The notes below the pieces were generated by a model. It saw only the letters and a list, made by a program, of their open reading frames with translations. It ran no database searches and was not told the DNA's origin. Below are positions 14,326 through 54,209 of a stretch of 64,000 nt of DNA, one piece after another. How positions within the stretch are numbered: position 1 is the first letter of the stretch; the number at the start of each line of letters is the position of its first letter. Position numbers and translations under genes: made by a program. This stretch comes from Cyanidioschyzon merolae (Eukaryota): the NCBI GenBank assembly GCA_000091205.1, contig AP006494.2; one strand, written 5' to 3'.

Positions 14326-14694
14326 CGCGTCGACCATGCATCAAACCTGGACCAACATGGACATATACATACCTGGAACAATATCCTACCCTATCCGTGA
14401 ACGATCATCGTGTCCCAGTATTCGACATTCATGCATATACCGTAAAACTGCACGCTTGGATAGTGCCTTTGGCCTTCAATCCATGCAAGCATCGGAACGG
14501 CATCCAGCGAGAGCTCAAGATGGCGCCTCACGTGCAAAGCACGAAGGACTGCAATGCGGACAGCAGGCTGGGCGCTGTCCACCGCGCGTTCCTGCCAGCT
14601 GCGCAAGCGCCGCCATCGGCTCGAGCTGCAATCTCCACACACGTGCGCGTACCGTAGCGCTGGAAAATGTTCGGTCAGTGTTCTGGGCGCCGCT

Positions 14695-20833: not shown

Positions 20834-23027
20834 CGGTGCACCACTACAAATAGATCTGTGAGGCGTATTCATGTAGCGTTCTCGCGCTTGAAGAGCGAAG
20901 TGCCATGCGGTGCGAGACTAGGGCGAGAAACCGTTTACATGAGCGGTATTCCGGATGACACCCAGTGGGTTTTACAGTGAGTCTCCGATCAACATGATCT
21001 GAAGCACGCAATGCTGAAATAGCCAGCAATACTGCGAATTAGAGGCGGGATCCTTGAAGGATGCTCTTCCAAGCGCGACCTGTATGTGATTGGGTGCGTT
21101 CGTAGCTGCTCGTTGTATCCTCGTGTATAAATGTATATATCGGGAGTTTATCTGTGCGCACATAATGGAGCGACACAGGGCGGGCTTTAAGCCGTTCATG
21201 CCTTCGGGAGAGAACGACAGCCTGAACTGGTCGACTGCCAGCTGCGAATGGCACGGAACTTTCCGCGCTAACGACGGGGAGGGCGCAGGAACCACGTCTC
21301 CTAGGCACGCAGGCCGGGATCGAAGAGTAGGACTGGGATCGCGGATCGGTGCCCTACGGTTTCGATGACGTCCCAGATTTGGAAATCGTGAAACATGCTC
21401 TGAGAATCAACTTGGAACGCTCGTGTCGCCTTGCTTACCGCGAATTTCTCGACATGAAAGACGACGCTAGTGTCGTGGCGGGCGCATGAACCTGGGCGCC
21501 GATCATGAAGGGCGTGTAATGAGCAACCAGGCGGTATATCAGCTAGACGAGCAGGCCTCGGCAAGTCAGGGAACGCGTTCAAGACAAAGTACTCTGAACA
21601 TTTGCCGGCTATCACCGTGTAAGCGGATAGAACGCTGCTGTGCGTCGCTGGGGATTCTGACGAGTGGCAAGCTTGTGTGTGGTTTATCATCGATGCCGCA
21701 GTCGGATGTATACTCAGCCCGGCGAATTCTGGAATGCCCGCACAAATACGCATTCATCAGAATTTGTTTCTTTTCAAGCCGGTATTCGACGAACGGGATA
21801 TCCCGAGCATTGGAGGCAGATTGCAGAACGGCTTCATGCAGTCACTGCTACCTTCGGAAAACGTCCATACTTCTACAAGGGAATCATTCCACGCTCAGCA
21901 GGTGGATAACAGACCCGTCTCGTAGTCCCTATGATGAACGCCGGGCTCTAAATCCAGCAAGTATCGAACACTATGTACGCGATATTCTCCTCGTTAGTCG
22001 ACTCCATTCCGTTCTGAAGGATCTCTAGGAAACGCTATCAGCGAAGCGACAGGATGTGGACGATTCTTCCCGTTGATATGTCCGATAATGAAGCGACACG
22101 GATGGACAATGAAAAAGCCCGCTTCTATGGAAGACCATCGCGCCTTGAACGATGCACTATGGACCTTGCATTGAAGTGCGAACGCTTGTGATATGAGGGA
22201 GCTTGGTTCGTCTCACTCGAAGAGACGTCATTCGGGGCCAATGGTATACCTGCACATCGGTATTCGAAGAGCTGCATACGGTTGTTCTCGTTGAGGACAT
22301 GGGCGAGTATTTCGAAAACATGCGGCGATGCAATTGTGTGATCTCCGAAAATATCCTGTAAATCGCCAGACGTTCGGGTTTATTCAACAACTTATCCTTT
22401 GTTGAGGCATTCTTCGTGGCTACTTCTTCCCGCTTTCTTTTCTTCTGCGCTTCGCCGACAACGTCGATTTTCATCCCTTGCGAGCGGCCAAGGAGTACGC
22501 AGCTGGACCTCGTGGCAAACTGCTCTTCCTGGCAGCCGCTTCCCATCGTTCCCGCCAGTCAAAGTTGCCTACTCTGTTGCCAAACGCAGTTTCTGCTCTC
22601 ATGAACCCATGGATGAGTTGTTCGTATCCGTCACGTCTGTCTTCGACCAGTCGCTCTGTACCTCCCGTAACCCTGAAATGCTCTGTTGCTGTTCTGCTTG
22701 TGCCCGGGAGGGAATGTTCGAAAGCGCAAGCATCGCTCTTACCGCCCAGCAGATGCATCTGAATCCCTGGGGGAAAACGGAGATATAAAATAGCTACCAA
22801 TACTATTACATCGCAGCAGGAAAAAAGCGGGCAAGAATGGAACACTATACAACTGCACTGGACAAGGACGAAAAAACGCTTCCGGAAAGAGGACGCTAAA
22901 GAACAACCAGGGAAAACTGCTGGAGCGGAATGACCAGTCTGAAACTGTTGTTATTGCCGCACTACAAAACCGCATCAACGGGAGTATCCTCCAGGACACG
23001 AAATGCGGGACGTCATGACGGAACGTG

Positions 23028-24162
23028 CAGCCTGTTACGCGAGGAACGCTCGCTCCGCTTCCCGTGCCCTGACACATCTCGTCACGCAACGATTCGTACG
23101 AGCTGTGGACGCAGGGATGCCAGCTGTTCATGTTTCTCTTCAGCGTCTCGATCAAACCTGCACGCGACAGCACAAGTGATGCTCGTTGCAGCAGATGCGA
23201 TGAGCCCTGGTCGTGGAACCTGAGGGTTGCACAGTCGCCTCCCAGCGTCTGCTGACGAGTGGACGCGTTGGCTAGTTGCTGCGTCGCATCGCTGCTTCAG
23301 GAATCCATACGTCTGCAACGCACATGCCAAAACGTATCGAGCCTAGCCCAGCAATCGTGTGCAGATCGCTGCGGGGCGCTTCATGAGGCGCACCCTGCCG
23401 CCGATGTCCTCGTTGCACCCGGGCCTCACTGGCCCGAAACAATGCGGAAAGCTAAAAGGGACGCTACACTCTAGATCGTAAAGAAGCGTCGAAATAGCGC
23501 TCGCGGATGATCTCGTGGCAGGTGCACACGATACCGCGCTGCTGTCGCCTCTGACTTTGACTCGACGGAGGCTAGAAGCGAGCAGTCGCCAACTTGCTCG
23601 ATAAGCTGGAGAAGCGATTGACCGAGGAGTCGCGTCGATTGGTGCTTGCCTACGCAAACGGACGTGCTGGTGCGTCCGCGTGTCGCACACCAGCGCCCTC
23701 GACGGGAGCGTCCAGCGAGTACACAGGGATCGCAGCTGGGCGATTTCCCTGCACGCGTTCGCGACGATACGGAAGCATCACGAGCGGGTGTGCGCAGCGA
23801 TGCTCGCCGAGAAGCCAATCGTGAAACAGAGCCAGCTGCACGAGATGGTGCACGGTACGCTGGGCGGGCGCCAGACTGCGAGGGAATCAAAGGCGGGCCT
23901 CCCTGTACAGTGCGAGTCGACGAGCAACAACGCAGGCAGGCGCTCGCTGCACCGAGACCCGAACGCCTCGATCAGCATATGGACGAGTCACGTGCTTCCT
24001 GCGCGTCCAGCGGCGATGTGTGGAACCATTCTTTGAGGTGATCGTTCCGTACACAGTCTAGACATTGTGCTGAAACGCTCAAGTCTATCGATGAGGAGAA
24101 ATCGATTGCCAACAGAGAGAGCACGGAATGACCCATCGGGAGCAGGGCGCTGGTACGGGCCG
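23028..24162. repeat. Direct repeat copy B (about 1.13 kb), partner of 13191-14325
   Basis: See copy A. Confidence 0.85.
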
Positions 24163-24681
24163 AGTCAGCAATCCACCAAGTCTAAAGCATCTTATATACA
24201 CTCCAGGACCCATTCTTTTAGGGCATTGCCGAACGATAATTATCTTGCTCGATTATGGAACCACACCGACTATACTCGAGGCACCCGCGGTGCATCATTG
24301 TGCTCTACCACTAGGTGCCGCGTTGATTGCACATGCTGCATCGCGATGCTCGTGATTCCATGAACGAGGCCCCGCTCCAAAGCGACCTTCGCAGCGTCGC
24401 CTCAGAGAGCCGCTACCGCGCGCTAAAGCATGCCGACACCTATCGTTCAACGCGGGCTCCCTGACCACCACCATGTCAACGTTCCGTCCAAGAACACTCG
24501 TACGCTGAACAAGTCTCGGGCATTGGCGCACGATCTATGTCCTTCTTGTACTGGTTTGTACAGATAGCGGACGTTGATTGCTTGCGCACTGACGCGTTTG
24601 CGTCACCGAGATTCCACTATCATCGTTTTTAGTCTACGATGCGGTGTTCTCTGGCTTCACGGGTGTTGCAGGTCTAGGGCT

Positions 24682-28694: not shown

Positions 28695-31584
28695 CCTTTA
28701 TGAACGCCAAGGCAGTTTCGGCACAGCGACTTGCTTGAGGGCGCGTGCGCGCGCAGTGCACCACGGAGACGCTGCGTTGACGTTTGCGCTAGACGAATGC
28801 ATCTCTGAAGGCTCAACGGGGCTTCAATTTGTTCTGGAGCTTACGAAAGGTGGGAGATTATCGCGGATTATAACGTACGTTGACGCAGATCCAGGTGTTA
28901 GCGCTACTGGAAGCTTGTACCACGGATCAAGGGACATACAGACTGGTGTTCGAGGTGCTGTGATCGTTTCCCTATTCTTCAGTTGCTTTGCGCTATACCC
29001 GTGGAATCGCGGTTCGTTTCAGCGATCTGACGTCCGGAAAAGTCTGGTACTAGCGGTTGGGGAACAACGTCTGAGGGTCAGGAGCGTCTGGCAGCACCGG
29101 CAGAGAACCATTGAGCTCTTCCGGTGTTACGGGTTGCTTTTGCGTGTTTTGGAAGGCTGTATAGGCTTGCGGACCCTCTCACCCACACCCAGACGAGGTC
29201 AGGTTAGAGGTGCTGGGCAGCGTTGTCGTGGCGAATACCAAAGTGTATGAACAGGTTCAGTCGGCTGTGCGCCGCACGATACCGAAGCGGATCGGAACGA
29301 GCGTGTTTGCAGCTACTGGCGCCCGAGCGCTTGGAATGAAGCAGCACTTGGAGCACAGTTCGTGACCTTGAACGACGCATCTGGCACCCTTTTGAGCTGC
29401 GAAGGCCAACTGGGGCTTGCAAAGATGGATCGGGACGAGATATCATGGGTCGAGTACTTCAGCATGTCGAGCAACAAGACACCTATTGTTTCAGTATGCG
29501 ATCGGGGCACGGGTGATAGAAGCGAAGCTTTCGCGGGACAAGTGTCATTGCGGAGCAACGCTTCTTTCTGCGCATTGCGGCCATTGCCCAGGTGTGCACG
29601 GCGCCCAGGTCAGTGCTGTCCACGCGCAGCTTTTTTTGCTGGTACGTCTGCACTTCCAGTGCGCTCTTCGGGCTTTTCTCTTGTGGAATGCGGTTCCTTT
29701 CTGGTATCGTGGCTGGGCAGGCGCCCATGGAAGGCAAACAGATGCCGGTTTGCTTTATTTGCGAAACACGAGCGAAACTTTCCAGACGCATTCCAGAGCG
29801 GGGAGCGCCGAAGCCTCAACCGCCAAAAAACGCCAGCCGCTGGATTGAAAGGTGCACTGTCGGACCTGTTGCATCGGGTTCCGAACCTGCTGCCTGCCAG
29901 GGACCGGGATCTGCGGTCCGATCTGGTGTCATGTCTCCAGCGTCTAGGCCGTGTAAGTCTGCTTTCATTCTTGCTTCTCTTTATAGACGCGTATTTGTCG
30001 CTCGTCGTGTTCAGTATAGGCTTGACGAGCACTGCGCTCTTCATCGTATTCCCGGGCACGGAGGAACGGCTTCGTACTCGCACCAGAAAGGCACTTGCAC
30101 AAGTCGGCTCAAAGATATGCGCATCTGCCGGGTCGCTTGGGCGGCGGTGTCGTACTGCTCTTCTAGATCAACTGCGCAAGTTACTCTAGCGCTACCGGGC
30201 AAGCAAGTCACGGTTTATGCCAAATGGCGCCCTGCGGTGATCGCTCATGCGCAATTCAGGCGGTTCGGCAACCAGGCGTAAAATCAGCAGCGGGATTGCA
30301 TGCCTTGCCGCATATATTCATCTGGTAGCGCTTTATGTGAGCAGAGCGGCACCGGCTTCCAAGCAAGTCATCCAGACAGATGTTCTCTTATATTCAGGAT
30401 CTTTCGCGCTATCCAAGGAATCCCCGATAGCGCAACGGCCATCAACATCCGGCAGAGTGTTCATCGTTTCGCGCCATAACTTCAAGCATCCATCACCGAT
30501 ACTTCTCGTTGGAGACCGTCGTCCGTTTGTCCGACAATGCGGATGGCGCATGTCGGCCGCCAGCGCCAACTGCGGTGCCCAGAGTTCCGGAGCGGTCGGA
30601 CGGAAAACGCTTTTGAGCACGAAGCGTGCCCTGGCAATGTCGCCTGTTTCTCAACCCGCCTGCATCAGCGCTGTTCGTACCGTTCACTGAAAGCGTAGCC
30701 ATCCATTCTATGTTTACAGCGGATGGATGTACATTGCCCGCGATTTGAGAGGAAACGCAAACCCACTGAACGCGACATCTTTTGCGCGTATTTCCCCTAC
30801 CTGATTCAAAGTGCTTGCAGGACGATGCCCATATCCGAATAAAATGCAACGGATCCTCCAGCTGGGGCGCGCACGTTATAGTTTGTGACTCTTCCCATTT
30901 TCATCAGCACCAGCTTTTGCAGGCTTTTTCTACGACTGCTTCCTTATCTTCTCTGTTATCTCCGCCTGCAAATAAGCGGGTGTCTACTCAATTTCCAACT
31001 CCGTTGTCAGCAGTCGCAGGATGTTGATGTCAGCGATCATCGACAGATTACGCCGATTCGGACTGCTGTCTACGCATTTGATGCACAGAGGCTGATTTTG
31101 ATCTACGGTTCGCTTGCAATTTTCATCTTTTTCATACACAGCCGCGATCCACCATTTCCAATTGGTGAACCTCGGCTGCGCTCAGGCGTTCTCAAATGTT
31201 TACGATACGCCCGCCTCCGAGAGCCGCACAGTGACGCACAAATGCTTACTCGATCGCTCCGTTATGCCCGTGACGGGTACCGTAGGCTTCATTCGATGCC
31301 TTCTTCCACGTTCACGCCCAATGCCGTCCCCTTCGATAACGTCATTCTTCTGGGCAATGCTTCTTCGAGTATGCTGTCCGCTGCACGAGCAAGCGCACGC
31401 TGTCTCATTCGAAACTCGGTATGCGATTTGCACAACTATCGGAAACTGTACTGCAGTGTCTCCTTCAGCAAGATGTCACATGATTCTTTTGGACAAAAGG
31501 CCCTCGCTGCGCATGAAGCGCTTGCGTGCTAGCTTTTCTCTTCCGACAAGCATGCACTGATTCGAAAAATAAGATTCTTTAAAA

Positions 31585-32691: not shown

Positions 32692-33771
32692 ATGACCGAG
32701 GACGGCAGACCAGTTGTGATCGATTCCGGAGCACTTTACACACGTGTAGATTTCGCTGGTAATGATGTGCCAAGTGTAACAGTGCGAACGGCGTCTGAAA
32801 CGCCTGTAAACGGCGTCAGCGTGGAGACCGATCCCGGTCGCAGCGCCGGTGCGATTCCGGACTGGGAGAGGCTCGCTGGTTTCTGGGACTCGGTTCTGAC
32901 GGAGAGTCTTGGGACCAGGGCAGAGAATCAGCCACTCTTGGTCGTTGATTGGGCAGAGTCAACGAAGTTCTCCAGGGAGCTTCTGGCACAAGTCGCTTTC
33001 GAAACACTGGGCGTGCCGGCGCTTTACCTCGCAGCACCTGCAGTTCTCGCACTATACGCTGTCAACCGAACAACGGGCTTATCTATTGACGTAGGGCATA
33101 CGAGTTTGCGGATCGCGCCTGTGTACGAGGGTTTCCAGTTTGGATACGCGACGACCACGCTGCCGATCGGTGGAATCGATATCGAAGCAAGGCTCAGAAC
33201 GCTCGTTCTTGAAACGCACATCGGGGATGCGACCACGACACGAGCGTTAGACACGCTTGACTGGCGCGTACTAAAAGAGGCCGTTTCAGAAGTCCGGCCG
33301 AAGCAAGGCGTAGACGGCGAAACGTCAACGTTCACTGCCAAGCAATATGCAGTGGTCGAGGGGCGCAGCATCCTCGTCACCCCGGACCAGTACCTCGGCT
33401 GCACCGAGATGCTTTTCACGCCGGCGACCTCTCCCGATGGGAAAAACAGGAGCACATTCACGGAGAGGGTTCATCTAGCGCTTATGCAATGCGAGCCGGA
33501 TATTCGGCGAGAACTTGCCGCGAATATAATGTTATATGGAGGTGGCGCTGCGCTCAAAGGACTCGCAGAACGTCTTCGTAGTGAGCTCGTTGACGTATTG
33601 CCGTCGTCTATGCATCCGAATGTCGCTGTTGCGCATGACCCTTCGACCGTCGCTTGGCGTGGGGGATCGATTCTTGCCTCCATAACGATGTTTCAGCAGT
33701 TGTGGGTCACGAAGCAAGATTATAACGAACATGGGCCGCTCTGCATTCTGCGAAAAGATACGATGCGATGA
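32692..33771 (+). CDS. Actin-related protein (divergent ARP, 359 aa)
   Basis: VVIDSGALYTRVDFAGNDVP (phosphate-1 loop), LLVVDWAESTKFSRELLAQVAFETLGVPALYLAAPAVLALYA, SIDVGHTSLRIAPVYEGF, ANIMLYGGGAALKGLAERLRSEL, VAWRGGSILAS..FQQLWVTKQDYNEHGP. These are co-linear with the actin fold motifs. Confidence 0.8.
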   Translation: MTEDGRPVVIDSGALYTRVDFAGNDVPSVTVRTASETPVNGVSVETDPGRSAGAIPDWERLAGFWDSVLTESLGTRAENQPLLVVDWAESTKFSRELLAQVAFETLGVPALYLAAPAVLALYAVNRTTGLSIDVGHTSLRIAPVYEGFQFGYATTTLPIGGIDIEARLRTLVLETHIGDATTTRALDTLDWRVLKEAVSEVRPKQGVDGETSTFTAKQYAVVEGRSILVTPDQYLGCTEMLFTPATSPDGKNRSTFTERVHLALMQCEPDIRRELAANIMLYGGGAALKGLAERLRSELVDVLPSSMHPNVAVAHDPSTVAWRGGSILASITMFQQLWVTKQDYNEHGPLCILRKDTMR

Positions 33772-35382
33772 GTTCGAGTACGTGGCAGCTACAGAGAAAC
33801 GCACCCACGTGACGTAGAGGATCTGCACGTGATCCATGAAAGCTCTTTCATGGGTCCACAGTTTTCTTGTTGTAGTGGATCATGGGTGACGTGAGCTGTG
33901 CCTTGAATAAGGACGACGAAAATTTGAACGCGCTGCATGATGATTCCATCCATGGAATAGGAGATCGCTTCCGGTCCTAGTTCCTGAAACGGGGAAGTCA
34001 ACGCGGCAATTCAGAAAGAGGTATCTCGGTATATAAGGAGGCGACGTTTCCTCAAGGTGGAAACGCGGGCCGCGAGCGCTCTGGTCTAGAATTTTTATGC
34101 AACCCATGAGCATGGGCAATTTTTTAAACCTGCCTAGAAGAATGAAGCGGATCTCGCCGCTTCCACGTGCGCCATTGCAGAGTTTGAGCAGACGAAACCA
34201 CGAGCCGAGAACGAATACGTGTGAATTTTTTGCTTTCTCCAAAACATACGCATTTCACAAACTCCTTAGCTGTTTCTGGTACGAGCCAGTCCACTGTACA
34301 GGTGCACGCTAGTTCCTGCGTTCTGCCTTGTAATCCAGACACGATGAAAGTCACTCGCGGGCAGGTGCGATGTGCACTACACACGTATTAGATTAAAACG
34401 GAACACCGAACGAGTCGCGCTGCTCCTGCCTTGCGATCCTTTTTCCGAATTTGTTGCGATGAACTGCCTTGACATTCGACATGCAGTAATGAGAATTCGT
34501 GGATGCGTATGTAGACTTTGGATGCTAGGTCGTCGTTTTGGAGTGACTCGAATGACGCTATGCCGCTGGAATGCGCGCCGTCACCAGCATCCCGATGATT
34601 CCCGACGCAAGCGAACAAAAGCGCTTAGAAGAACTGGTGTCGTTTTCCAGCGCTTACGTGCAAGCCTCCAGTGCTCCCCTTTTCGTATACGTAGCATGTT
34701 CGAATCCCGCATTGTACCAGTTTTCGATCGTTCTGCTTCAAGGCAATGCTTGGACGCAGCGATTCGTGCCACTGGATCGGGGACGAAAACTTCTGGAAGT
34801 CGATGCTGGACAGCTTCTTCATAGGCTCATGAGGAATGTTCACTAGATATCTTACTTGCAATGATCGGTTCCGTTCGGATCCTAAATCATCCTCACTTGG
34901 AAGCTATTCACGGAACTACATTCGACAGCACCCTGATCCGTATCACCGTGAATACTCCAAGATACTCACGTCTCGTTTGTTGGCATGGAAGATGATCTTG
35001 GACTCGGGCCGCAGTCATCGCAGGGATCGCGAACAAGAAAGCGTGCGTCACCGCTTAGCACGAAGGGAGCATATACGGGCCTAAATTTCCCGGCTTGCAC
35101 TCTAGCCGAGACTTTCCATCCGGTATTTTTTCCATCCCAGACATCATAGCGTTCCACAAAACCTGTATTAAATGAAACAGCGTGCGTTTGCGTCTGCTGC
35201 GGACAGAGCACTCGCCGTGGGGATTGTGTCGAAGAAGCCCGCGATCCTAGGTCGCCACACTGGGCCCAGAAACCGAGGTAGGCGTCGCCTTGAGCATTCG
35301 TTACTCGTTACAGGTATAATTCGTGAGCAATAAGGCATGTGTTTGGATAACAAAGGGAGGTCTCGGAGGGCGGTGTCTGTGG

Positions 35383-35398
35383 GTGTGTGTGTGTGTGT
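35383..35398. repeat. (GT)8 microsatellite
   Basis: gtgtgtgtgtgtgtgt read directly. Confidence 0.9.
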
Positions 35399-35496
35399 TT
35401 GGTAGACATATGGGAAAACCCGCCCACTGCCAAGTGTCTCACAGCCGCGACAAACGCCCCAAGGCCATGTACAATAAACATGGAAAAGGCAAGTGA

Positions 35497-35600
35497 AGGG
35501 TAGATCGGAATTTCCAAAATTGCATGAAATGCGAAGAGCTAATCCGAAGAGAGCGAAATCGGAACTTGAACGCTGCCATCGACATCCCTCGACACCTGAA
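35497..35600 (+). pseudogene. TnpB/Fanzor-like C-terminal fragment (CxxC plus RuvC-III-like), plus strand
   Basis: Translation reads ...NFQNCMKCEELIRRERNRNLNAAIDIPRHLKT, compared with TnpB ..C..CG...nRDxNAAxNI. A stop lies a few codons upstream, so it is an isolated fragment. Confidence 0.3.
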
Positions 35601-35806
35601 GACTGAGCTGGAGGAACAGGAACAACCGGCATATATAGAGCCGGGGATATGCGAGAGGAAAAGGAACCATTCGCAGAAGAAGCCCGCTAATGCTGGTACT
35701 GATAGTGACGGGGAGGAATCCAAAGGTTTGCACGAATGTCCGGTTTCGATAAGTGGACCCATTCCATCGTATACTGGCATTTGTGTATCCGGCACCAAAT
35801 GTATGT

Positions 35807-36233
35807 TCAGTTGAGCAGAAACGCTCTGCGAACATAGGGTAAATGAATACCCACTCGCGCATGCCTCCCAACCTTTTTCGACTGGCCCCTTGCAATCTGT
35901 TTCAGCTTCTCCTTGCTCACCACGACACTGAGAGTTTGCCCCAGAAATTTGGATCGCGTCAGCTCCTCGGATATCGTCTTCAGCACCGCACATCTCCTGA
36001 TATTAATGGCGGCATTAGAGTCTCGGTTCACGAACTCCTTACGTGACCTGCCGCTTGTCGAACTTGCCGATGCAAGGCGTCCCCGAACTCGTGCCCTCAG
36101 TTCTACTTGGTGCTCTGTCAATTCTCAGCGCTTTTCTTTCGACGAAGTGCTCCGCTGCCTTCTCTCCATCTCAACCTTCCGAACTGTACATTCCAACTCT
36201 TTTCTTATATTTTGGAAAAACGAACGCACTTGC
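35807..36233 (-). pseudogene. TnpB/Fanzor-like gene remnant (copy 2), frameshifted, same family as 6055-6879
   Basis: GRSRKEFVNRDSNAAINIRRCAVLKTISEELTRSKFLGQTLSVVVSKEKLK...SKK is co-linear with copy 1 (FVNRDFNVAINIRRCAVMERRPPELTRANFVGEPLQVEFYGNKLK...SKK). The adjacent upstream frame gives KELECTVRKVEMERRQRS, compared with copy 1 HELGCTLQSVQIEKCQRS. It is interrupted by stops. Confidence 0.5.
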
Positions 36234-36760
36234 TTATGCGCTTACGAGAGGACCTTCCCAGCGGGAAAAAACTTGCCCGAGAACGATGACATGTGCGCCG
36301 GTGTGTCATCTTGCTGAATACTCCAGCGATCCGCTCAATGGAGCGATCATTGCGTATCACGATAGAAAACATTCCCCCGATGCGGTTGAGCCACGGAGTA
36401 TGCGGAGGAATGAAAAACAGCTCTACTCCCCGACAGAATCTGCACAAACTCGGACATATCGGGAACGGTGAAATACCACGTTTCCCAATAGAAGGACATC
36501 GCCAGAGGTCTGGGCAAAGTCGTCCACGCTTCGACAAAGTGATTGGTCCTTTTGAATGTAAATTCTCTACTTGCGAAACTGAGACCGCGAGATGAATCCA
36601 CTGCAGCTGGAAACGATGATGATGATGTCTTAGTTTTCTTCGTGTTCAATTGTACATACAATGGGCCCCCTCTGCGCGAATATCCATTTACGCTCTGAAA
36701 ATTTCGTCCGAAGCAAGTCTCATCGACTGAGAAAAACAAATCGACGCCACTCTGCTTCAT
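36205..36760 (-). mobile_element. Tc1/mariner-type (DDE_3) transposase remnant, frameshifted
   Basis: LFFSVDETCFGRNFQSVNGYSRRG (first-D block, compared with vfiDEsgf) in ORF 36347-36760. ELFFIPPHTPWLNRIGGMFSIVIRNDRSIERIAGVFSKM (compared with LPPYSPDLNPIE..W..lK) in ORF 36205-36537. Confidence 0.5.
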
Positions 36761-37361
36761 ACCGATCGCAACGGTCCAGTAACTTTGTTGCAGTCGCGAT
36801 TTCTGTCGCGGATGGCCGTGCCTGCATTAGGACTCTGCTGCGATTGGTCCCCAGTGTTTCCAGGGCCATACGAACAAGCTGGTGATAAACAGAAACGCCC
36901 GTGGCGTGTCTTATCGGCGCTATTGCTTCCCATACGGTGATCCATGGATCACATTCTACAGTTGACCGCGAGCACACGCTGTGAGAGTACCAGTTTTTGA
37001 TGCGGAGCGCCTGTGCTTGTTCTTTAATCTTCCTCAGCCATCTGCGTTCTATGGTATGACCGACCGGAAGGAGGCATGCAGCCCTACTTGCACTGTTCAG
37101 TAAAGAATGCATATCCCACGAGCAATTCGTCTACAGTCTGTACTGTGCACTCCAGCATGATTTCGATCAGCTGCTGTACACCGCAGCAGGCGTGTAAAAA
37201 AATCGAGTTGAAAGACTGGAACACGGGCGTAAGTGCACCTGCAGCGGATCGCTTCGAAACGCGCACATACGCGGCAGGTATCCGAGGTTCTGCTCGGTGA
37301 AGCGTCTTCGTTCATTCGCGAACGCCTCACTGGACACTATTAACACAGATCTTGGGAGGTA

Positions 37362-39023
37362 ATGGATCCACCTCCCGAGTCACTGCGTTCTGTGTGGTGT
37401 GCGATTCTCTTCCGAGCGCTAAAGGCACTCGAGCAGGCCAACTCGAACAGGAGTTCTTTTACTGCGAGGGAAATCATCGACTACGTCGACGCACACTGGG
37501 ATCAAGTTGCACAGGGTGCAGAGTTCCGTCGCAAGTTCAGTGTGGAACTCACAAGAAGACTTCAACCAGACAGTGCTCTCGTCGAGTTGGACAGGAACCC
37601 AAGTGCGCTTGACGCTGAGCAGACGCACGAGGCATATTGGAAGCTTCGGCTGGGTGTGGACTCCTATGACTGGAGCCTGATAACCGAGGAACATGCAAGC
37701 CGCCTCGCCGATGATCTGGACCTAGAGCCTGCGCCCAAGCGGGCTCGCTCTACGTCCGCGGAAACGAAGAGCACCGCTTCACTGCTGTTAGCGCCAGCAC
37801 CTGGAACAACTGCATCGGGGTCGCCAGAAACCCCAACTGAACCACAACGCGTCGCGACTTTGGCAGACATCGAATCATCCACTGGTCGCACTTCTGCTGT
37901 GTCGAATCGAGCAGAAGAGAGGTCTGCGTCTGGTCCGGCGGGCGTGCCGCGCACCGAAGGAAACACCAGAACACGACACGGGGGGCATTCGGCCCGCTCC
38001 GCTGCAACCGATGGTGGACAACGTACCATTCGACGAGGTGGACTTGTCGCCCAGTTCAGTGAATCTGTGCTGGCTCGTTTAAAAGCCGGTGTGCCCGTAG
38101 AGGAAATCGATCCCTTAGAGCTCATCGATGATGCCGCAATTCTGGAATGGAGGAAACCGCCGCGTGGGGTGCCCTACACCCTAAGCGAGCACCAGCGAGA
38201 TCCAAAGCTTCAGTTATCGTCGGACCTCTTAACGGTGACTGGAGAGCGCGGCTTCCGCAGTATACGCGGTATTCATGGCGTTGCGACTGGTGACTGGTTC
38301 TTTGAGATCCAGGTGCTGGCAGGGGAACCGCCACCGCTGCCCTGCCACGAGAGCGTCGTCGATCGCGATGGAGTCCAGCCTCATATAAGAGTCGGGTTCG
38401 GCTCCTGCCGGGCTGAGGTATCCTTCCCGGTCGGTTGGGAAGTTCACGGCTATGCGTATCGGGATAAGACTGGCGACAAGGTTCACGACTGCATCCCGGA
38501 GGCATACGGTTCCTGTTGGGGCCAGCTCGGTGACGTGATCGGTTGTCGAATCTGCCTGCCACCGAGTCTTGACGCTCGCGAAGAGGCTCTTATTCGACGA
38601 CTCGATGATGCCTGGTTTGATTTCAAAGGCATGAACATGGGTCTCGGGAGCAAACCGAAAATGCCACCGCCAACAGAGCTCCTCTATACCACGGACAGAG
38701 AGTCAAGCCATGTCGCCACTGGTACCTATATTGAATTTTTCAAGAACGGTGTCTCGCAGGGTATCGCATTCCGGAACCTAATACCTGCTGTATACTATCC
38801 GATGATTTCTCTGTACATGGGAGCCAGATGTCGAGCCAACTTTGGAGCGGAACCTTTCCGCACGAGCATTCCCCCAGGCTGTCGAGGTTTTTGCGAGTCA
38901 ACGCCGCCACCGTGGACGTTGACCCCGGAAGCAAACGCGGACTCTGCGACATTTAGGTCTGACGACGGTCACACTGGTCCGTATGTCCCGGGAATCAGCA
39001 CAATAGAGACACTAGAAGCGTAG
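37362..39023 (+). CDS. ASH2-like COMPASS/Set1 complex subunit (N-terminal winged-helix region plus SPRY/B30.2 domain)
   Basis: The SPRY core HGYAYRDKTGDKVHDCIPEAYGSCWGQLGDVIGCRICLPPS matches ASH2L GYSYGLRSKDGKKWHNG..PYGEPFGEGDVIGCLIDLP. GDWFFEIQVL is the SPRY signature. Genuine ATG at 37362. Confidence 0.75.
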   Translation: MDPPPESLRSVWCAILFRALKALEQANSNRSSFTAREIIDYVDAHWDQVAQGAEFRRKFSVELTRRLQPDSALVELDRNPSALDAEQTHEAYWKLRLGVDSYDWSLITEEHASRLADDLDLEPAPKRARSTSAETKSTASLLLAPAPGTTASGSPETPTEPQRVATLADIESSTGRTSAVSNRAEERSASGPAGVPRTEGNTRTRHGGHSARSAATDGGQRTIRRGGLVAQFSESVLARLKAGVPVEEIDPLELIDDAAILEWRKPPRGVPYTLSEHQRDPKLQLSSDLLTVTGERGFRSIRGIHGVATGDWFFEIQVLAGEPPPLPCHESVVDRDGVQPHIRVGFGSCRAEVSFPVGWEVHGYAYRDKTGDKVHDCIPEAYGSCWGQLGDVIGCRICLPPSLDAREEALIRRLDDAWFDFKGMNMGLGSKPKMPPPTELLYTTDRESSHVATGTYIEFFKNGVSQGIAFRNLIPAVYYPMISLYMGARCRANFGAEPFRTSIPPGCRGFCESTPPPWTLTPEANADSATFRSDDGHTGPYVPGISTIETLEA

Positions 39024-39768: not shown

Positions 39769-39812
39769 TCGTTGTTGCTCAGGGTCTGATTTCAGACCCT
39801 GAGCAACAACGA
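39769..39812. repeat. Perfect inverted repeat: 21-bp arms (tcgttgttgctcagggtctga) with a 2-nt spacer
   Basis: tcgttgttgctcagggtctga-tt-tcagaccctgagcaacaacga read directly. It lies in an AT-richer intergenic region between ASH2-like and the Tim17-family gene. Confidence 0.9.
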
Positions 39813-45250: not shown

Positions 45251-47339
45251 TTCTGTGCGGAAACGCACCAGGTCATCGGAGGTCCGTCGAGCATCTCACG
45301 ATCGACTGCGTTGCTTCGTGGTACTGGATGCAACCCCGATTCAGCGCGAAGCGTGCTTTTCTGCGAGTCTATGGCACTATGAACTGGTCTTTGTTCGCGC
45401 CTGACTCGAATGGTTTTATGTGCCGAGCGTTGCGTGATTCGAAGGAATCCACGGATGCGGAGACTGTCTGCTTGGACCCGGTGATCGAGGCGGATCAGCC
45501 TCGCACGCTCGGAACAAAACCTATGCAGCTGCAAAAGGTCGCGATTCCGTTTCCAAACCTATTTGGGACCAGTGAATCTTTTGGGAACAGGAACTTGGAG
45601 CCAAACCGCTCCGACCACGAAGCAATTGGTCCGCATGTATCCGTATGGAATACAACGGAAACATTGATTCGAAATTCACGTGGATTTTCCTCGCGCGGCT
45701 ACGGCGGCGAGCACAAGGTACCAGCGCTGGCGATGACACAATCGAGTTTTGAATCGAGATCTGCCTCGATCATATAGAGCGTATGTTCCTGGGACTAGAA
45801 CTACAGCTTGAGACCAAGCGGGGCTTTTTTCTGCGTTGCTGATGCGCCCTTCAACGTTTGTTTTCGATTGACAAGAGCGGTGGTGGAGGGATTGATGCAG
45901 GGCAGCCTCGGGCACGACCATGAAGCTCAGATTTTGCAACCGCCAAAATATGCGATGGTTTCCCTCTCTATGCATTGAGGTCGTCTGCAACGCCGCTTAG
46001 TACCTGATGCTATGGAGGATGTGGATAATGAAGCGATGATCAGTAGCAGCTACTGCTTTGGAATCATTTCCCTGAGTGGGCGAAACAATGTAGCTGCTTT
46101 GAACATCAAGCAGCAGATATAGAGAGCATTTTTTGTTCTCTGCAACTATACGTCCTAAACGACGTGCATACCGAATGCGCACAACGATGTCTTGCCAAGC
46201 GAGGTAAGCTTTGCTGCGTGCATCTCGAAAGACGATCTGACATTGCTCCGTCCGGAAAGTTCACCGGAGCGTTCGCGCGAGTCGCTCCCGTCCTCCAGCA
46301 TGCTATTGTGCGCATCCAACTCTCGCAATAAAAACGATCCAACACAAACTGCTGAATAAGCAGGCATCCGTTTTCATCCTGAGCATGGCCGAGAAACAAC
46401 ACGGATCTGTAGTCACGCCGCGGAGGCCGAGCATGCCACGAGTTCGTCTCCAGCGAGGAGCAAACACACAATGCTCGGCGATATCAACGCTTCGCATGTG
46501 ACAATTCCTTCAAACAAAATTGCCATATAACAGCACCATCCCCTGTAGAGCAGACCGCTGTACTCCGTATTTCGCCACGTCAGCCGACAAAGCTGTCTAC
46601 CCCAAAGAGCAGGGCAAGAGTTCCGTACTGGTGCGAGCCATATGTTCCGACACACAGAGCCGACCTTGGTCAGGGGAGCGCAGCGTCCGAACACGTACGT
46701 TATCTGGTCCAGTTTTGAACAAGCTGGGAAGCGAGGTTCTTGGCTGCTCAGGAGCAACTATGTCGCTCTGACTTGTTTACACCCAGAGACGCGTTCGCCC
46801 CTATGACGGGCAGCCTAGGTGGCGTCAACACTCATGAGCGTCCCGACGTCAAGGCAGACGAGGCCAGCAACCGCAACACGACCCCGACTCGAAGTCTGCA
46901 AAAGATCTTGGATTGTATCCCCGGATGATATACCCCCGAAGCTCGTTTTCTGGTCACTAGCATGTCCGGCAATACCCGGAGCTGTGAGTCCCGAACAAGT
47001 GCACCAACACGCCTTTTTTGCTTTCCGTATATTTCTCTCGTCAGTACTCGATAACAGGAATGTTTTCTGTAGACTGGAGAAAGCTTGGGGAAAGGCTTTG
47101 TGCCGGCACTTGTATCTGGCGAAATGAACTATCTTCCAAGTACAGCGCAATCTCATTCGACAGTGAGCGAGCGGGGATGAACTAGCGTTCTCCCAGTCCG
47201 TCTGACGACCGTCGTGCACTAAGAACTGAACTTCATCAAACGCCATCCGCTCAACCGTCTGCTTGTCAATGCATTGCACTGCATATTATCTCGAAGAAAT
47301 GCTGTCGTGGGATGCATAGGATGAAAAGTCTTCGTACTG

Positions 47340-47934
47340 TTGATATCAGCGGCAGTGAAGCGAGACGCACGGACAAAGAAACCGGTATGCACGTATGGAG
47401 AACCGACTCGGATTGAACTCCTTACAATCGATTTCGTACAGAAACGCGAACGCCTACTTCAAAAGCGACGGGTGTTCTTCGCACTCGATGAGACCGAATT
47501 CGGGCGGCATGGTCGACCTGAATACTGGTCATCAAGAGTAGGCAAGATTCTGTCTAGAAAGAAGAGAAACATGCCCGAATCACGAGTACATCAGCGCTGG
47601 CGGCGACGCAATCTCGTGGTCGCCCAAACATCGCCAAAACAGTACGGGATCCTTCAACAACCCATGCTTCATCAAACCACTTCAAGTGACCTCCTTCTCC
47701 TACTCCTGTCTCCTGCTCTTACATAACATCACTTTCCATCGCTCGACAGAGGTCAAGGAGCACGAAGCTGCGACTGAAGCTGAGCAGCTCTTCGGACGAA
47801 CCCATTCTGCCATGTTCATTCCAGTCTCAGGCGTCTTCTCTGTTGTCAAACACCATGTTTACGCTCACAAATCCATAGACGAGTCATTCGCATCCGTGCC
47901 ACCGAAACATGCGAAACACCATGAGGGATCATGA
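47340..47934 (+). mobile_element. Third Tc1/mariner-type transposase remnant (frameshifted/deleted)
   Basis: RVFFALDETEFGRHGRPEYWSSRVGK (first-D block, similar to LFFSVDETCFGRN at 36.7 kb). A downstream ORF reads MFIPVSGVFSVVK (compared with FFIPPHTPWLNRIGGMFSIVIRN), apparently with an internal deletion. Confidence 0.35.
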
Positions 47935-50210
47935 AGCTTCTCTCTGGAAACAAAAGTCTCGACCAGCCTCTCCCGCGATGTCGCACCTCGTCCAGCAACT
48001 GTTCGTAAGACGTCCATAGGAACGCTGTCAGCTGTCAAGATTTTTCATGAATTTTTATCAAGCAAACGGTCATACGATAACACAGCCGATGCTCGGGACA
48101 GAAGATGCGATACGACCGGATTACTGGATCCGAGACTTGCACATACGCTTCCCAGCGTATTTTGACACGTCGCCTCGCCACTTCAGCGATCGGATGATAT
48201 CCAGCACAGGTGCCAGAACGCATGAAACGAACCGCAGAACCCGAGTTCCTGTGCAGGTCAATGTCGAACACGTCAATGAATGCACGCTGTTGGCGTTGCG
48301 CCCTAATCTCACTGGCCCAGAAAAGTGCGGTCCGCTCGTGGTGATTCTCGGGGCGTCCATGGAGGTAAACGACGACGACCTGTCTGCAGAAGACATCGAG
48401 GCGGCAGCGAGTTCGGAGGCGCGTTAGCCGCCACGAAAGCAGGACGGCACTTCAGATCATCCGAGCACAGGGTGTTGCCGGCAACCGAGGAACTCTGAGC
48501 ACTGCATCCAGAGGATGGTGGAAATCTGATGCCTGCCTTGCTTGCATGTTGTATCCATGCGGTTACCCAGAACAGTGCCTTCCAGGGCAAAGCAGACACC
48601 CTCGTTGAATCTGAGCGCCGCGAGCCTCGTCAGCGGCCTAGGCAATGTGATCTCCATATCATGCCTCAAGGCCTGGTTTATCACGATAGACACGTCTGTA
48701 CTGCACTGAACCGCTTCCTAAATGATACACGGCTGGTCTCTGCGAGCAATTGTGGACCATTCGAAGAACTCTGCACAGAGCATTGGCGGCGCTTTTTCAA
48801 GCTTTCTCGCTTCCAGAGGAAAATTGAAAGCAGGTTAGAGCATTCATGGAGACGGGCGCTATATCCATCGGCATACACCTCGTGAAACCTCGCTCTGAGT
48901 CGAGCAATGAGACTCATTGTGAACCGTGCAAGGTAGATGACGAAAAGGACAGCGTGGCGGTCCGTCGATCCTGGGCTGAAGAATATCGCGACCGTCGCCG
49001 TGCCCCGAGAGCAAGTGGACTCTATCAAAAGGCCTGAACCGAACGCGGATGAAGATGTTCAGCTTTTCCCAGCGCTCGAGTATCATGGATAGACGAGCGT
49101 GATAAACGCCCGGAGGCATGCTAGCAACGAAAATTCTGGTGTCATGACCCATTTCGACGCTCTGAGAAACGTATCGACCAGAGGGAATGCAATGTACGCT
49201 TCATTCCGAGCGCACATGTGCGTCCAAATGGCTCATGCAGACGATCCTTGGCACAAGTACATGAGACAGCGCTGGCGCTGCCGATGCTTTCCACTGCACC
49301 GAAGCAAGAAGCATGCTTTCGCCATCTTCAATGCGTTTTGGAAAGAAATGACTGACAAGCGGCGTTATTTGGCGGCGGTCCGTGGTGCTGACCGATATTT
49401 AGGGCGCCGAGGCCGCATTTCTGCTTCCTAGACGAGAGCGTGGAACGACTGCGGGAATCGATTCTGCCAGATTCCTATCGATGCGTTCAGCACGACATGA
49501 ACGCAACACCAGCACGGGTGCACACTGAAACTGGTAGAGGAGAAGCCGGTGAAACCGACCTGCATGCACAAGATGGTGTACAAGAAGCTGAATGAACGTA
49601 CGATCGCGAGGCAATGAAACCTGGGATTCTCCGCACGGTGCGATGCCACCTGCAATACCGCGAGCAAGCACTTCCTACAAAAGAGACCTGAACACCTTGA
49701 CGAATATTTGGAAGTAGCTCGTACTTCAGAAGCATCCAGTGGTTTTCTACCGAGCGAAATTTCGAAGGAATGTCTTGTACTAAGTGTGAGCACTGTGGTG
49801 AAATGCTGAAGACTTTCGCTGAAAGAAACGCCGTGGCCTGGAGACGTGGGATCGGATTCTCGACTCGAGCAAGGAACTCATATGGTGCAGTGCAGCAACC
49901 ATGAAAAGCTGGATTGCCGTGAATATCCCCCGGGAACGTTTCTTCTGCGCAATACGTGGACAATCACTATGTTCGATTATTCCATCATTCCGAGTATGCA
50001 TTGGAAGCGTTTCTGACAAGTAGAGGCGGCGCTGCAGCGCAGCAGATCGCTGCATGTGTTGCGCTCAGTGCAATGCGATGCTACAACACCGCAGCGTATC
50101 CGGCACCCGTGAAACGCGGTGGTGCATAGACGGGATCACTTGCTTAAATTCACTCACGAACGAAAGCAAAGTCTTTTTTGTTTGTAGAGAAGGCTTCCCT
50201 GCACATAACG

Positions 50211-51434: not shown

Positions 51435-54209
51435 ACAGTAATGCGTCAAGCAACAGAGTCGTTGGCATGTGCGGCGCCAGGGCAACTTTTCAGGAAGACT
51501 GGAGTTTGCTCGAGGCGTCTGATGCTTTGGTCATGGGTCATCGGCATGGATGTAGGGGACTTGCGGAGTTGATGTATGCTCCAGTATGTCACAGAGATAT
51601 CGTGCCTGAGCTGCTGTATCGAGGCGTTTTGTTTGGGGGCCTGGCGGACGCCATCACCGAATCTCGTCGATCAGGCGCTGCTCTGACGGGGAGTCCTTGA
51701 GCAAAAGACGCTGGGGTTCCCCGCAAAGCCCCGATCCAAATCCATGTGGTTCCGCTTGGATTGGCGCACGGACTGGAGCTTCACGCTTGCATCGGAAAAG
51801 GACACTAGCTGAGGTATCGGATACACTGGCCTTGGTTCCGGCTGATGACCAATATGTGAATGCGTTTGATGGATCCAGTCGTTGCTGTGCGTGATCGTCG
51901 CACCGGACTGGGTGCTGGACGGCTCAAATTTGGAACAGTGGACGCGGTAACGCCGAGCGCCCTCAGTGGCGGCTTGTACCAGGTGCATCGTACGCAAAAG
52001 AACGGTCACAGTCGCACATGGGTACATTGCCGACGGCAGCGTCGTGAGATGGACACTGGGTCGGACGCTGCACCGACAACCGAGCGTCGAGTGCTTGCGA
52101 CTAGCGTCGCGAACAAGCCACTAGGGCCGAACCATAGACGAATGAAAGTACAGCACTTGTCCCGCAAGCGACGCATCTTGTTCGGAGTGTAGAAATGCTG
52201 GACCAAGGAGGACTGGCAGGACTGAACGGGTATCCGTTCTGGGCCATAGATATCGCGCCGTCGCGCACTAGCTTGGATGCGGGGAACAATAAAGATGTCG
52301 TTGTTCTAATACTCTACGCATTGAGCGGGACTTGAGTGCATGTGCGGATTTGATTTTTTGCCATAGTATCAAATTGCATACAATGGTACTCTCGGAGGCA
52401 ACACCAAGTCGTCAGACAATCGCGTCCGATGCAAGAAACACATGAGCTTGTTTGCATCCGCGTTCAGGATTGAGCAAGAATCCTTCGGAAATGCCAGCGA
52501 TGCGGTGTTTTCTCTGCCGGTTCTTGCCCATGCGTCGGAGAGCAAAGCATGCGTCGTATCCGTCAATGCCGATGGGTATCCTCACTGAAGCTCGGTTCTG
52601 ACCAAGCGCACACCTTGAGCATTCGTCCGCGTGCATCGAAGAGACCTCATCCCTGACATGGTTCTACGATACTCGTTTCTATGCCCGTGTGTGGGCTCGT
52701 TCACGTTACGGTATACTTGATATGCACAACGCGCAATCGTAACGCGAGTTGCATCCTCAGACCAGCACAGAGACCATGCGTTTTCTCCAGTTTGCGTTTT
52801 TCTGCGAAGAATGCAGACAGAGCGTAGGCTTAGCTTCCCGCAATCGAACGTACCGTGTCAGACGCAGCCATTATGGGTATATATCCGAGTACCTGCGAGC
52901 TGGCACACATCCCATCCCGCATTCCAGAGCACGTGGTCAACGCTGTGGCGGGCGTTTTTTTTTCAAACGCTAATCTCGCAATGGAGCCTTGCTGAAGCGT
53001 CGCCCTGGACGCACCGCACCCCAGGGGTTGCGTGATGTCGCCATAGGGCCTGCGAATGGACCATGAACTCCGTGGAAGGGGTGGGCGTTGTTGGTTTGCT
53101 CGGAACTGAACGTGATCATGCAATACGACGGATGCTCGCTTCAGTGCCGATCTGCATCACGCAACCGGGTATCGCTGGTCAGTGCTGATGATCCGTCGAT
53201 CGGAAAAACGGCTGGATAACTTTTTGCACACGCACCTGCGCTTTAGCACCGCGCTGCGACTGACGTGAACCAGGTCGTTATATACGCTGGCTACAGAGTG
53301 TACGTTTCTGCGCGTTTGCCCGGCACCATGACTTGCCGGGAAAATCCTCAACTGCTCTCGAGGACGCATCGCATGCGCCCTTACGGTTTCGCACTCACTT
53401 CGACATGCCGCGCAGAACTGCATCTTCTGGAGCAAGTCAAGCTCGAGTAGATACCTCACATGCGCATTCGTATCATCGGGAAAGCGCGATGCTCGCACCG
53501 CCTCCCTGACTAGCGAAGGCGCACGAGCACCGACTCCCTGCGACATCGTCCGCCGTACCACAGACGTGATGCGAACGATGAAGCGAAGCATATATCCAGC
53601 AGTCAGCTATTGCTCGAGCCGACGCCCTCCGCTGTATCGCAAAGCTCATGCGTCTCGGAACTGCGTCAGCACCAACGCAACAGGTGCTATCGCAGACGCT
53701 CACAGCAGGTACAGTGCACGACAGAGCACGGGCAATGGCCTGTATCTCCGATGGAAAATATGGATAGTGGAACTTGGACGTAACGCCTGCAACGATGGAC
53801 GCTTTCCCGAATGCCGATATCCATCGCACAAAAAACAAGAGTATGCCTATCAGGCGAAACGTTCTGTCAAGCGAAAAAAGAAACAGCCAGCTGTGGCGCG
53901 CAATCTCGCGACCTGCGTGCGCGTGCGCGACTCCGAGATGTGCACGGGAGGGTGCAGTGTATGCTTCAGCGCACCCGCCTCCGGTCAACGTTTCCGGGCG
54001 ACGCACTGGATGAGCTGCTTCACTACGAATCGGCAGCTCTCAAGCTGAACGGAATAGCACACCGTCGATACAGCAGCGCGTGCTGGTCAAGCGACGTATA
54101 CGGCTGCCTGAGAGCGGTGCTTGGAGTTTTGCACGCCTGCATCCTCCTCTAGCACAATAGACTTGAACCTTGAGCGTATCCAGCACCAGTCCGGCACTAG
54201 ACACGGCCG

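Follow-up and report, generated by a model that had tools for sequence, protein, structure and literature searches.

Tail-to-tail remnants of probable Tc1/mariner-Fanzor1 transposons from Cyanidioschyzon merolae, a red alga

Introduction

Genes for Fanzor1 have been found inside Mariner/Tc1 elements of oomycetes and algal viruses, such as PUl-1 and PGv-1 (Bao & Jurka 2013, PMC3627910), and later work likewise placed Mariner/Tc1 among the Fanzor1 carriers and described Fanzor1c-Mariner/Tc1 associations (Jiang et al. 2023, PMC10530073). This study concerns a 64,000-nucleotide (nt) stretch of the genome of Cyanidioschyzon merolae 10D (contig AP006494.2), referred to as the window, and in particular two neighboring repeat elements within it, W34 and W36, which combine Tc1/mariner-type transposase sequence with Fanzor sequence. 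Of the elements used for comparison, PUl-1 comes from Pythium ultimum and PGv-1 from Phaeocystis globosa virus.

In C. merolae, the repeat CMe-1A has been described as a 3169-nt consensus with ~150 copies that are ~80% identical to it; CMe-1A was reported to have no terminal repeats, an unknown classification, and undetermined target duplications, its 5' 635 nt correspond to another repeat, TE-N2_CMe, and some copies keep intact Fanzor open reading frames (ORFs) (Bao & Jurka 2013, PMC3627910). CMe-1A is the 3.2-kb interspersed repeat of which 253 copies, constituting ~5% of the genome, had been counted earlier, together with eight "class II" elements that were weakly similar to bacterial transposases, with E values from 0.07 to 6e-7 (Nozaki et al. 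2007, PMC1955436). The C-terminal motif of Fanzor1 is D...[TS][TS]xx-zinc finger-...RD (Bao & Jurka 2013), and the guide RNA (fRNA) has been placed across the ORF's 3' end together with the terminal repeat (Jiang et al. 2023, PMC10530073). In the literature searched, which did not cover Repbase, no report for C. merolae was found that linked the CMe-1A Fanzor to a Tc1/mariner transposase.

The evidence presented here indicates that W34 and W36 very probably originated from cut-and-paste transposons that carried two genes and were of the Tc1/mariner plus Fanzor1 kind, that both are internal-deletion derivatives, and that they were inserted tail to tail. Elements that combine Mariner/Tc1 with Fanzor1 are already known, and no new kind of system is described.

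Structure of the two elements

The section of the window from 33.8 to 37.2 kb consists mostly of two dead, complete, internally deleted elements whose 3' ends face each other. A sequence-only reading of the same DNA had counted three elements within ~1.3 kb; the alignments resolved these into two whole elements in a tail-to-tail arrangement, as follows.

34386-35787, plus strand: W34, a complete but dead family-2 copy (family-2 consensus match)
35780-35807, no strand: spacer (~28-31 nt) separating W34 from W36 at their 3' ends, tail-to-tail arrangement
35808-37218, minus strand: W36, a complete but dead family-1 copy (family-1 consensus match and paralog alignment limits)
36292-37112, minus strand: W36 transposase remnant, split over three reading frames (DDE hidden Markov model [HMM]; Pfam DDE_3)
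35852-36250, minus strand: W36 Fanzor part (blastn to the CMe-1A consensus; Fanzor HMM; leader alignment)
34386-34404, plus strand: W34 5' terminal inverted repeat, TATTAGATTAAAACGGAAC; family consensus TGTCAGATTAAAATGGAAC
34459-35160, plus strand: W34 decayed N-terminal part of the transposase, resting on the family-2 consensus
35497-35600, plus strand: W34 second CxxC (CMKC) of the Fanzor zinc ribbon and RuvC-III, NFQNCMKCEELIRRERNRNLNAAIDI; family consensus NFHLCMKCVDNSRKQRNRDLNAAINI
35761-35779, plus strand: W34 3' terminal inverted repeat, ATTCCATCGTATACTGGCA; family consensus GTTCCATTTTATTCTGGCA

W36 contained a DD34E transposase gene followed first by a Fanzor leader and then by ~120 codons from the Fanzor 3' end. 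Its 5' and 3' limits were the points at which 13 paralogs ceased to align. Over the interval that begins ~110 nt upstream of where the transposase starts and ends ~1390 nt downstream, these paralogs were 66-75% identical to W36, and beyond the -110/+1390 limits their flanks were mutually unrelated. Alignment of the copies allowed consensus sequences to be reconstructed for family 1 (13 paralogs) and for family 2 (14 copies). The family-1 element had a length of ~1.45 kb, and positions 2-1412 of its consensus corresponded to window positions 37217-35836 (77.2% over 1425 nt). An ortholog of W36 on metagenome contig L002 was 99.1% identical, flanks included. When the window was compared with itself, 36210-37180 recurred in inverted orientation at 12007-12960 with 69% identity.

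A frameshifted DDE transposase had been proposed at 36205-36760 on the minus strand. The frameshifted gene is real, but it does not end there: the gene extends to ~37112, and the element extends to ~37218. With an HMM built exclusively from intact environmental transposases, co-linear pieces were detected at 37112-36729 (E 2e-10), 36817-36515 (E 2e-13), 36545-36441 (E 2e-4), and 36432-36292 (E 6e-8). Stitched across the three frames, the transposase reached 34 bits against Pfam DDE_3 (cut-off, 28.6 bits; E 3.3e-8). When single ORF pieces were run against Pfam, one weak DDE_3 match was the only result (E 0.0028); stitching and family consensus sequences were needed. The catalytic motifs appeared in the order SVDETCFG (first D), LLLGNVVFHRS (second D changed to G), and PPHTPWLNRIGG (E changed to G). 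The four peptides quoted in the sequence-only reading were all present where it had placed them, including LFFSVDETCFG within the minus-strand ORF 36347-36760, FFIPPHTPWLNRIGGMFSIV within the minus-strand ORF 36205-36537, and FVNRDSNAAINIRRCAV within the minus-strand ORF 35807-36121. Another peptide, IQQDDTPAHMS (~36330-36300), resembles the second-D motif of Tc1/mariner elements; it was rejected as part of the transposase because it is located after the third motif. The second-D motif proper, LLLGNVVFHRS, is read in a different frame.

The family-1 consensus restored the motifs DET, LLLDNVAFHHS, and PPYSPWFNPIEG. It matched Pfam DDE_3 with 73.9 bits (E 1.6e-20) and the DDE HMM with E values of 1e-27 to 1e-33. 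In this consensus as well as in the intact relative L008, the second D (LLLDNVAFHH) is separated from the E (NPIEG) by 34 residues, which is the DD34E spacing. For an N-terminal helix-turn-helix DNA-binding domain of the paired type, matches to HTH_Tnp_Tc3_2 were obtained for L008 (E 1.6e-5) and for the family-1 consensus (E 3.7e-4), both under the Pfam cut-off.

In the Fanzor part of W36, a leader of ~45 nt, equivalent to CMe-1A ~860-905, is joined at ~36200 to sequence equivalent to CMe-1A ~2737, and this type of junction was also found in the paralogs L042, L045, L049, and L054. Family 1 comprises two deletion types: group B, which includes W36, is joined from CMe-1A ~905 to ~2737, and group A is joined from ~969 to ~2835. 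The Fanzor-like C terminus that had been noticed on the minus strand was confirmed by blastn to the CMe-1A consensus (2739-3018 equivalent to 36199-35923, 72.5% identity, E 2e-39) and by a Fanzor HMM built exclusively from environmental homologs (36121-35918, E 2.4e-17). This tail carries FVNRDSNAAINI (RuvC-III) and the motif RD..NAA.NI in the form NRDSNAAINI, and RuvC-I and RuvC-II are deleted. Compared with copy 1, a CMe-1A copy elsewhere in the window, the tail was 49% identical over 67 amino acids and 78% identical over 125 nt at the DNA level. Among the related loci, L029-L032 contained 625 nt of TE-N2-like sequence (CMe-1A 4-628, 77%) inside a family-1 copy, after transposase codon ~266 (~10648-11273 in L031), and L031 also contained several ~460-nt pieces composed of leader and Fanzor tail without transposase.

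W34 matched positions 6-1378 of the family-2 consensus (window 34390-35787, 72.8% over 1399 nt). Family 2, whose consensus was derived from 14 copies, is a deletion derivative of ~1.38 kb bounded by 19-nt terminal inverted repeats; 17 of the 19 positions of the consensus repeat pair, and equally good pairing was found in 0 of 1000 shuffles. The family contains transposase codons 1-235, ending just past DNIAFHKS, followed by the last ~190 Fanzor codons with the zinc ribbon. The DDE part of the consensus matched the DDE HMM (E 6e-24 and 3e-10) and Pfam DDE_3 (27.6 bits, truncated at profile position 106). The tail of the consensus matched the Fanzor HMM (E 2e-5) and passed Pfam Cas12f1-like_TNB (PF07282) with 31.7 bits (cut-off, 26.3 bits; E 1.8e-7).

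The plus-strand fragment with CxxC and RuvC-III-like sequence, which the sequence-only reading had listed separately, turned out to belong to this full-length family-2 copy. The first CxxC pair of the zinc ribbon is located further upstream, in the family-2 consensus, and the motif RD..NAA.NI, which reads NRDLNAAINI in the consensus, has decayed to NRNLNAAIDI in W34. No Fanzor HMM match was obtained for the W34 plus-strand fragment itself, which is too decayed to score alone, and its Fanzor identity therefore rests on the family-2 consensus. In tblastx, W34 34903-35160 corresponded to the DDE region of the intact relative L023.

No activity is possible today at the W34/W36 locus, because the catalytic D and E of the W36 transposase are mutated, frameshifts and stops occur throughout, identity among the copies is only 66-75%, and both RuvC-I and RuvC-II are missing. 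The upstream D and E of the Fanzor motif are deleted at this locus. Copies of families 1 and 2 adjoin each other at L041, L045, L060, and L069 as well as at window positions 34386-37218, in head-to-head, tail-to-head, and tail-to-tail arrangements, which suggests either that each family preferred to insert in the neighborhood of the other or that few intergenic sites were tolerated.

Co-occurrence of transposase and Fanzor sequences

An HMM scan of the window gave clear DDE remnants at 12049-12923 (plus strand), 21849-22659 (plus), 37112-36292 (minus), and 47334-47916 (plus), and a weak one at 34459-34785 (plus). All five were followed on the same strand, within ~350 bp downstream, by Fanzor-derived sequence. 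Recurrences of this pairing had been noticed near 12 kb and 47 kb; both were confirmed by HMM, and an additional one was found at 22 kb. These three composite remnants were as follows.

11940-14344, plus strand: W12, long composite remnant (family-1 transposase and Fanzor pieces)
21849-24179, plus strand: W22, composite remnant (diverged transposase at 21849-22659, then Fanzor pieces at 22878-24018)
47334-49656, plus strand: W47, composite remnant belonging to a third lineage that is more diverged (DDE and Fanzor HMMs; tblastn)

In W12, the transposase (12049-12923) runs directly into the Fanzor leader and N terminus (CMe-1A 870-1119 equivalent to 12942-13196), and these are followed by Fanzor codons ~520-660 (13741-14183). 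The transposase of W22 was too diverged for BLAST and was detected by HMM (E 1e-6 and 5e-6), as were its Fanzor pieces (E 4e-8 and 1e-7). W47 consists of transposase sequence at 47334-47916 followed by most of the Fanzor gene at 48077-49656, with HMM E values of 1e-13 and 2e-22 for DDE and 7e-14 and 3e-11 for Fanzor. W12 and W22, 10 kb apart, share a block of 1151 nt with sharp edges (13194-14344 equivalent to 23029-24179) that is 98-100% identical, and on both sides of it they are ~50% alike, which is the random level; the block looks like the result of gene conversion or of a recent patch copy between old repeats.

A metagenome search with an alignment of the stitched transposases identified 76 loci. 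Contigs L002-L007 were 99% identical to the W34/W36 locus, including the flanks, and the W12 ortholog L022/L026 was also 99% identical to its counterpart, so that these contigs derive essentially from this alga, and the remaining Cyanidioschyzon-type loci represent paralogs elsewhere in the genome. At least 300 bp of sequence was available downstream of 79 metagenome DDE matches; in 64 of these, a co-oriented Fanzor match lay within 700 bp downstream. Identical DDE-to-Fanzor junctions were present in at least 12 dispersed paralogs per family.

Both ORFs were open in the intact relatives L008, L014/L015/L016, L023, and L034-L036, which encode transposases of ~300 amino acids (Pfam DDE_3, 83-98 bits) and Fanzors of 650-750 amino acids. 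In L014/L016, L023, and L035, both genes lie within a single pair of inverted repeats, which are 28-34 nt long and flanked by TA. The elements L014 and L016 are nearly identical, have differing flanks, and thus occupy two insertion sites, which indicates recent transposition of the two-gene unit. TA was found on both sides of the intact relatives at different sites, where it is inseparable from the repeat itself. The divergence of the two genes rose jointly, with DDE/Fanzor values of 33%/42% for L008 and 26-28%/26-28% for L034-35. These results agree with the proposal in the sequence-only reading that a Tc1/mariner family carries a Fanzor passenger; that reading had also considered that intact members might reveal two unrelated elements, and the opposite was found, with both genes inside one repeat pair. 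Two viral sequences were also observed: in L078, an IMG/VR viral contig, the transposase is followed directly by Fanzor, and in L080, a contig of a giant-virus metagenome-assembled genome, a related transposase was present and no Fanzor was detected downstream.

At the protein level, a profile of CMe-1, the Fanzor protein of CMe-1A, and six intact relatives matched the Spizellomyces Fanzor structure PDB 8GKH (E 2.3e-7), and the RuvC residues D431, E603, and D672 were invariant in the alignment of these seven proteins. PF07282 gave an E value of 0.52 in the CMe-1 lineage.

Origin of the elements and alternative explanations

The proposed ancestor would have carried a DD34E transposase gene 5' of a co-oriented gene for Fanzor1, a TnpB-like RNA-guided nuclease, within one pair of terminal repeats. 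In W36 (family 1), the entire transposase gene was retained and Fanzor codons 1 to ~611 were lost; in W34 (family 2), the section from transposase codon ~235 up to the last ~190 Fanzor codons was lost. Because the family-1 consensus restores a complete DD34E transposase, family 1 was presumably self-moving at the time of its spread. Family 2, with good terminal repeats and no capacity to encode a full transposase, is regarded as non-autonomous. Judging from what is established for the superfamily and from the intact relatives flanked by TA, the transposase would have bound the terminal repeats and moved the elements by cut and paste into TA sites. The Fanzor, to judge from the literature, may have been a passenger that aided the persistence of the element.

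Several results weigh against this descent from two-gene transposons. Terminal inverted repeats were found in the intact environmental relatives and in family 2; for family 1, the family of W36, none was detected in searches of individual copies or of the consensus. Scans for inverted repeats across 35300-37600 and across the three long composites produced nothing beyond chance-level pairs. In flank alignments, a TA target-site duplication was not established for any window copy; the flanks of the old copies are heavily decayed, and TA is present in a minority of them. The W34 copy alone barely scored as a transposase (34459-34785, DDE HMM E 0.045). The stitched DDE sequence had no relatives in a set of 5.8 billion proteins, the sole match of the transposase among solved structures was a weak one to Sleeping Beauty (E 0.018), and the PUl-1 Mariner transposase as a tblastn query gave nothing significant in the window. 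Finally, the consensus sequences, drawn from 13-14 copies at ~70% identity, retain frame shifts, and it is from them that an intact state at the time of spread is deduced.

The association might instead have arisen by chance, if unrelated Tc1/mariner and Fanzor elements had piled up in a few insertion-tolerant gaps. The genome is compact, its repeat fragments are clustered, every G+C dip in the window is a repeat remnant, copies of families 1 and 2 are often adjacent at other loci, and W34 and W36 were inserted separately, one beside the other. However, accidental neighbors are extremely unlikely to explain why order, strand, and junction are constant in all five window cases and in most of the 79 metagenome cases, why the exact junction recurs in at least 12 dispersed paralogs per family, and why the intact relatives, at different sites, have a single repeat pair around both genes. 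A second possibility is that one element inserted into the other once and that the joint was then multiplied by segmental duplication or gene conversion rather than by transposition of a unit. Copying of this sort does occur, as the 1151-nt block shared by W12 and W22 illustrates, and it would suit the lack of detectable terminal repeats in family 1. This course of events is nevertheless very unlikely: homology among the paralogs is confined to ~-110 to ~+1390 with unrelated flanks, which is a signature of transposition, the same architecture is retained in three lineages at 25-45% protein identity, and near-identical intact copies occupy different sites (L014 versus L016).

A further proposal would add to the descent from two-gene transposons rather than replace it, namely that the Fanzor tail was kept because it encodes a functional guide RNA (fRNA/omegaRNA) and the right end, so that transposase elements lacking Fanzor could be served in trans by Fanzor from CMe-1A copies. 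The Fanzor 3' end was kept in three independent internal deletions, the fRNAs described in the literature overlap both the ORF's 3' end and the terminal repeat (PMC10530073), some CMe-1A copies have intact Fanzor ORFs (PMC3627910), and the last 150 nt fold better than shuffled sequences in the CMe-1A consensus (z -2.9) and in L035 (z -5.0). Such a function for the tail is unlikely all the same, given that the deletion derivatives of a cut-and-paste element must keep their ends, so that 3' retention is expected regardless; that family 1 (z -0.4), family 2 (z -1.2), and the intact relatives L016 (z -0.8) and L023 (z -1.5) fold no better than shuffles; that the tails had no Rfam match; and that dead copies drift neutrally, which makes covariation unreadable. 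It is decidedly unlikely that the family-1 transposase elements and the nuclease-only CMe-1A (~150-250 copies, ~5% of the genome) were two halves of a split selfish system. If they were, the tail would supply the guide RNA and the right end, the CMe-1A Fanzor could act on the elements with a transposase, and the transposase, in turn, could act on ends common to both. The rise of CMe-1A, which has neither a transposase nor recognized terminal repeats, to the most abundant element of an otherwise almost transposon-free genome would thereby be explained.

Comparison with described elements

The proposed origin from a two-gene transposon places W34 and W36 nearest to PUl-1 and PGv-1. As in those elements, the transposase is located 5' and Fanzor1 3' on the same strand within one TA-flanked terminal repeat pair, an arrangement seen in L014/L016, L023, and L035, and the transposase here is of the DDE_3 type with DD34E spacing. 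The differences are the red-alga host, the absence of BLAST-level similarity to the PUl-1 transposase, and the state of the window copies, which are dead deletion derivatives.

CMe-1A is represented in the window by one near full-length copy.

6111-9176, minus strand: copy 1, near full-length CMe-1A with the Fanzor1 gene only (stops and frameshifts; no transposase)

Full-length similarity to CMe-1A (~80%, including the TE-N2-like 5' part) was found for copy 1 only, which was 82.6% identical to consensus positions 84-3137 over 3072 nt and also gave a tblastn match with the CMe-1 protein; W36 and W34 did not show it. The earlier observation that no DDE fragment lies beside copy 1 is in line with the lack of a transposase in CMe-1A. 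Copy 1 occupies the same place, next to a SWI3-like gene, in a contig of a related strain, L001 (Ga0078972_1028729), and its C-terminal ORF is 97% identical there, so that the insertion is older than the divergence of the strains. W36 resembles CMe-1A in its tail (72.5% over CMe-1A 2739-3018) and in the leader (~860-905) upstream of the Fanzor start, which is shared, and W34 had no DNA-level match to the CMe-1A consensus. W36 and W34 are thus related to CMe-1A but constitute separate families.

CMe-1A, unlike the composites, is without a transposase: where the composites have their 5' end and transposase gene, CMe-1A begins with ~860 nt made up of TE-N2_CMe plus ~225 nt. From ~860 onward, CMe-1A and the composites agree in leader, Fanzor gene, and 3' region, and upstream of this point they differ. 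On these alignments, CMe-1A is most plausibly a chimeric offshoot of the Tc1/mariner-Fanzor1 ancestor proposed for W34 and W36, with an unrelated, TE-N2-like 5' part of ~860 nt. The reverse complement of the first 70 nt of CMe-1A contains the blocks TCCATGGTC and ACGTTTTGTC in common with the 3' regions of CMe-1A and family 1. As 39 of 1000 and 10 of 1000 shuffles were as good, support for this end similarity is marginal, and it gives no more than a hint that a degenerate sub-terminal inverted repeat exists in CMe-1A, an element published as having none.

The CMe-1-type profile also matches the RuvC/zinc-ribbon half of SpuFz1, the Spizellomyces punctatus Fanzor1 (8GKH), an RNA-guided DNA endonuclease whose activity has been demonstrated experimentally. 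W34 and W36 differ from it in that they retain the surroundings of RuvC-III only and cannot be nucleases. Family 2 resembles the miniature inverted-repeat transposable element (MITE)-like deletion derivatives of Tc1/mariner elements in keeping both terminal repeats around an incomplete transposase gene; unlike these, it is long for a MITE at 1.38 kb and contains recognizable halves of two genes. Bacterial transposases of the IS630 type belong to the same superfamily as Tc1/mariner. The "class II" elements of Nozaki et al. (2007) are probably the DDE remnants described here; their E values would suit such decayed copies. That survey differs from the present analysis in giving these elements no family assignment and in not linking them to the 3.2-kb repeat.

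Other features of the window

The window has ~55% G+C, few introns, and densely packed genes, and each place where G+C dips to ~0.50 or less coincides with a repeat remnant. Six window ORFs were identical to C. merolae 10D proteins within BAM80687-BAM80696, encoded on a record of 859,119 bp. We take the window to belong to chromosome 12 of C. merolae 10D, from the letters CML in the locus tag (CYME_CML075C). The repeat stretch containing W34 and W36 is flanked by an actin-related gene at 32692-33771 (BAM80692) and an ash2-like gene at 37362-39023 (BAM80693), and as these accessions are consecutive, there is apparently no annotated gene between them. On the far side of the actin-related gene, one more family-2 copy was found.

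30837-31412, minus strand: W31, partial family-2 copy, the 3' 580 nt with the Fanzor tail (consensus 784-1365, 74.3%; tblastx)

TE-N2-like fragments of the CMe-1A 5' part, ~70% identical and with no Fanzor attached, were present at 53609-53831 and 63692-63822, both on the minus strand. A tandem repeat with a 72-nt period was located at 61084-61313; its unit resembles the first ~50 nt of the CMe-1A/TE-N2 consensus, with consensus positions 2-50 corresponding to 61146-61098 and 61214-61170. The sole Rfam match in the whole window was a 5S rRNA gene at 2044-2164 on the plus strand (RF00001, 94 bits). An intergenic, near-perfect (95%) palindrome of 44 nt was observed at 39769-39812.

Implications

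C. merolae 10D is a model alga with an almost transposon-free genome, in which the abundant CMe-1A repeat has stood unclassified. The W34/W36 locus and its paralogs tie the CMe-1A Fanzor lineage to a Tc1/mariner-type DD34E transposase and provide it with a plausible origin. At least two apparently undescribed families of deletion derivatives gain consensus sequences, which improves repeat annotation, and the intact relatives, from environmental contigs and one viral contig, are candidate Fanzor-plus-transposase units. A two-gene transposon of an already known kind is thus the probable ancestor of the unclassified Fanzor repeats of C. merolae.

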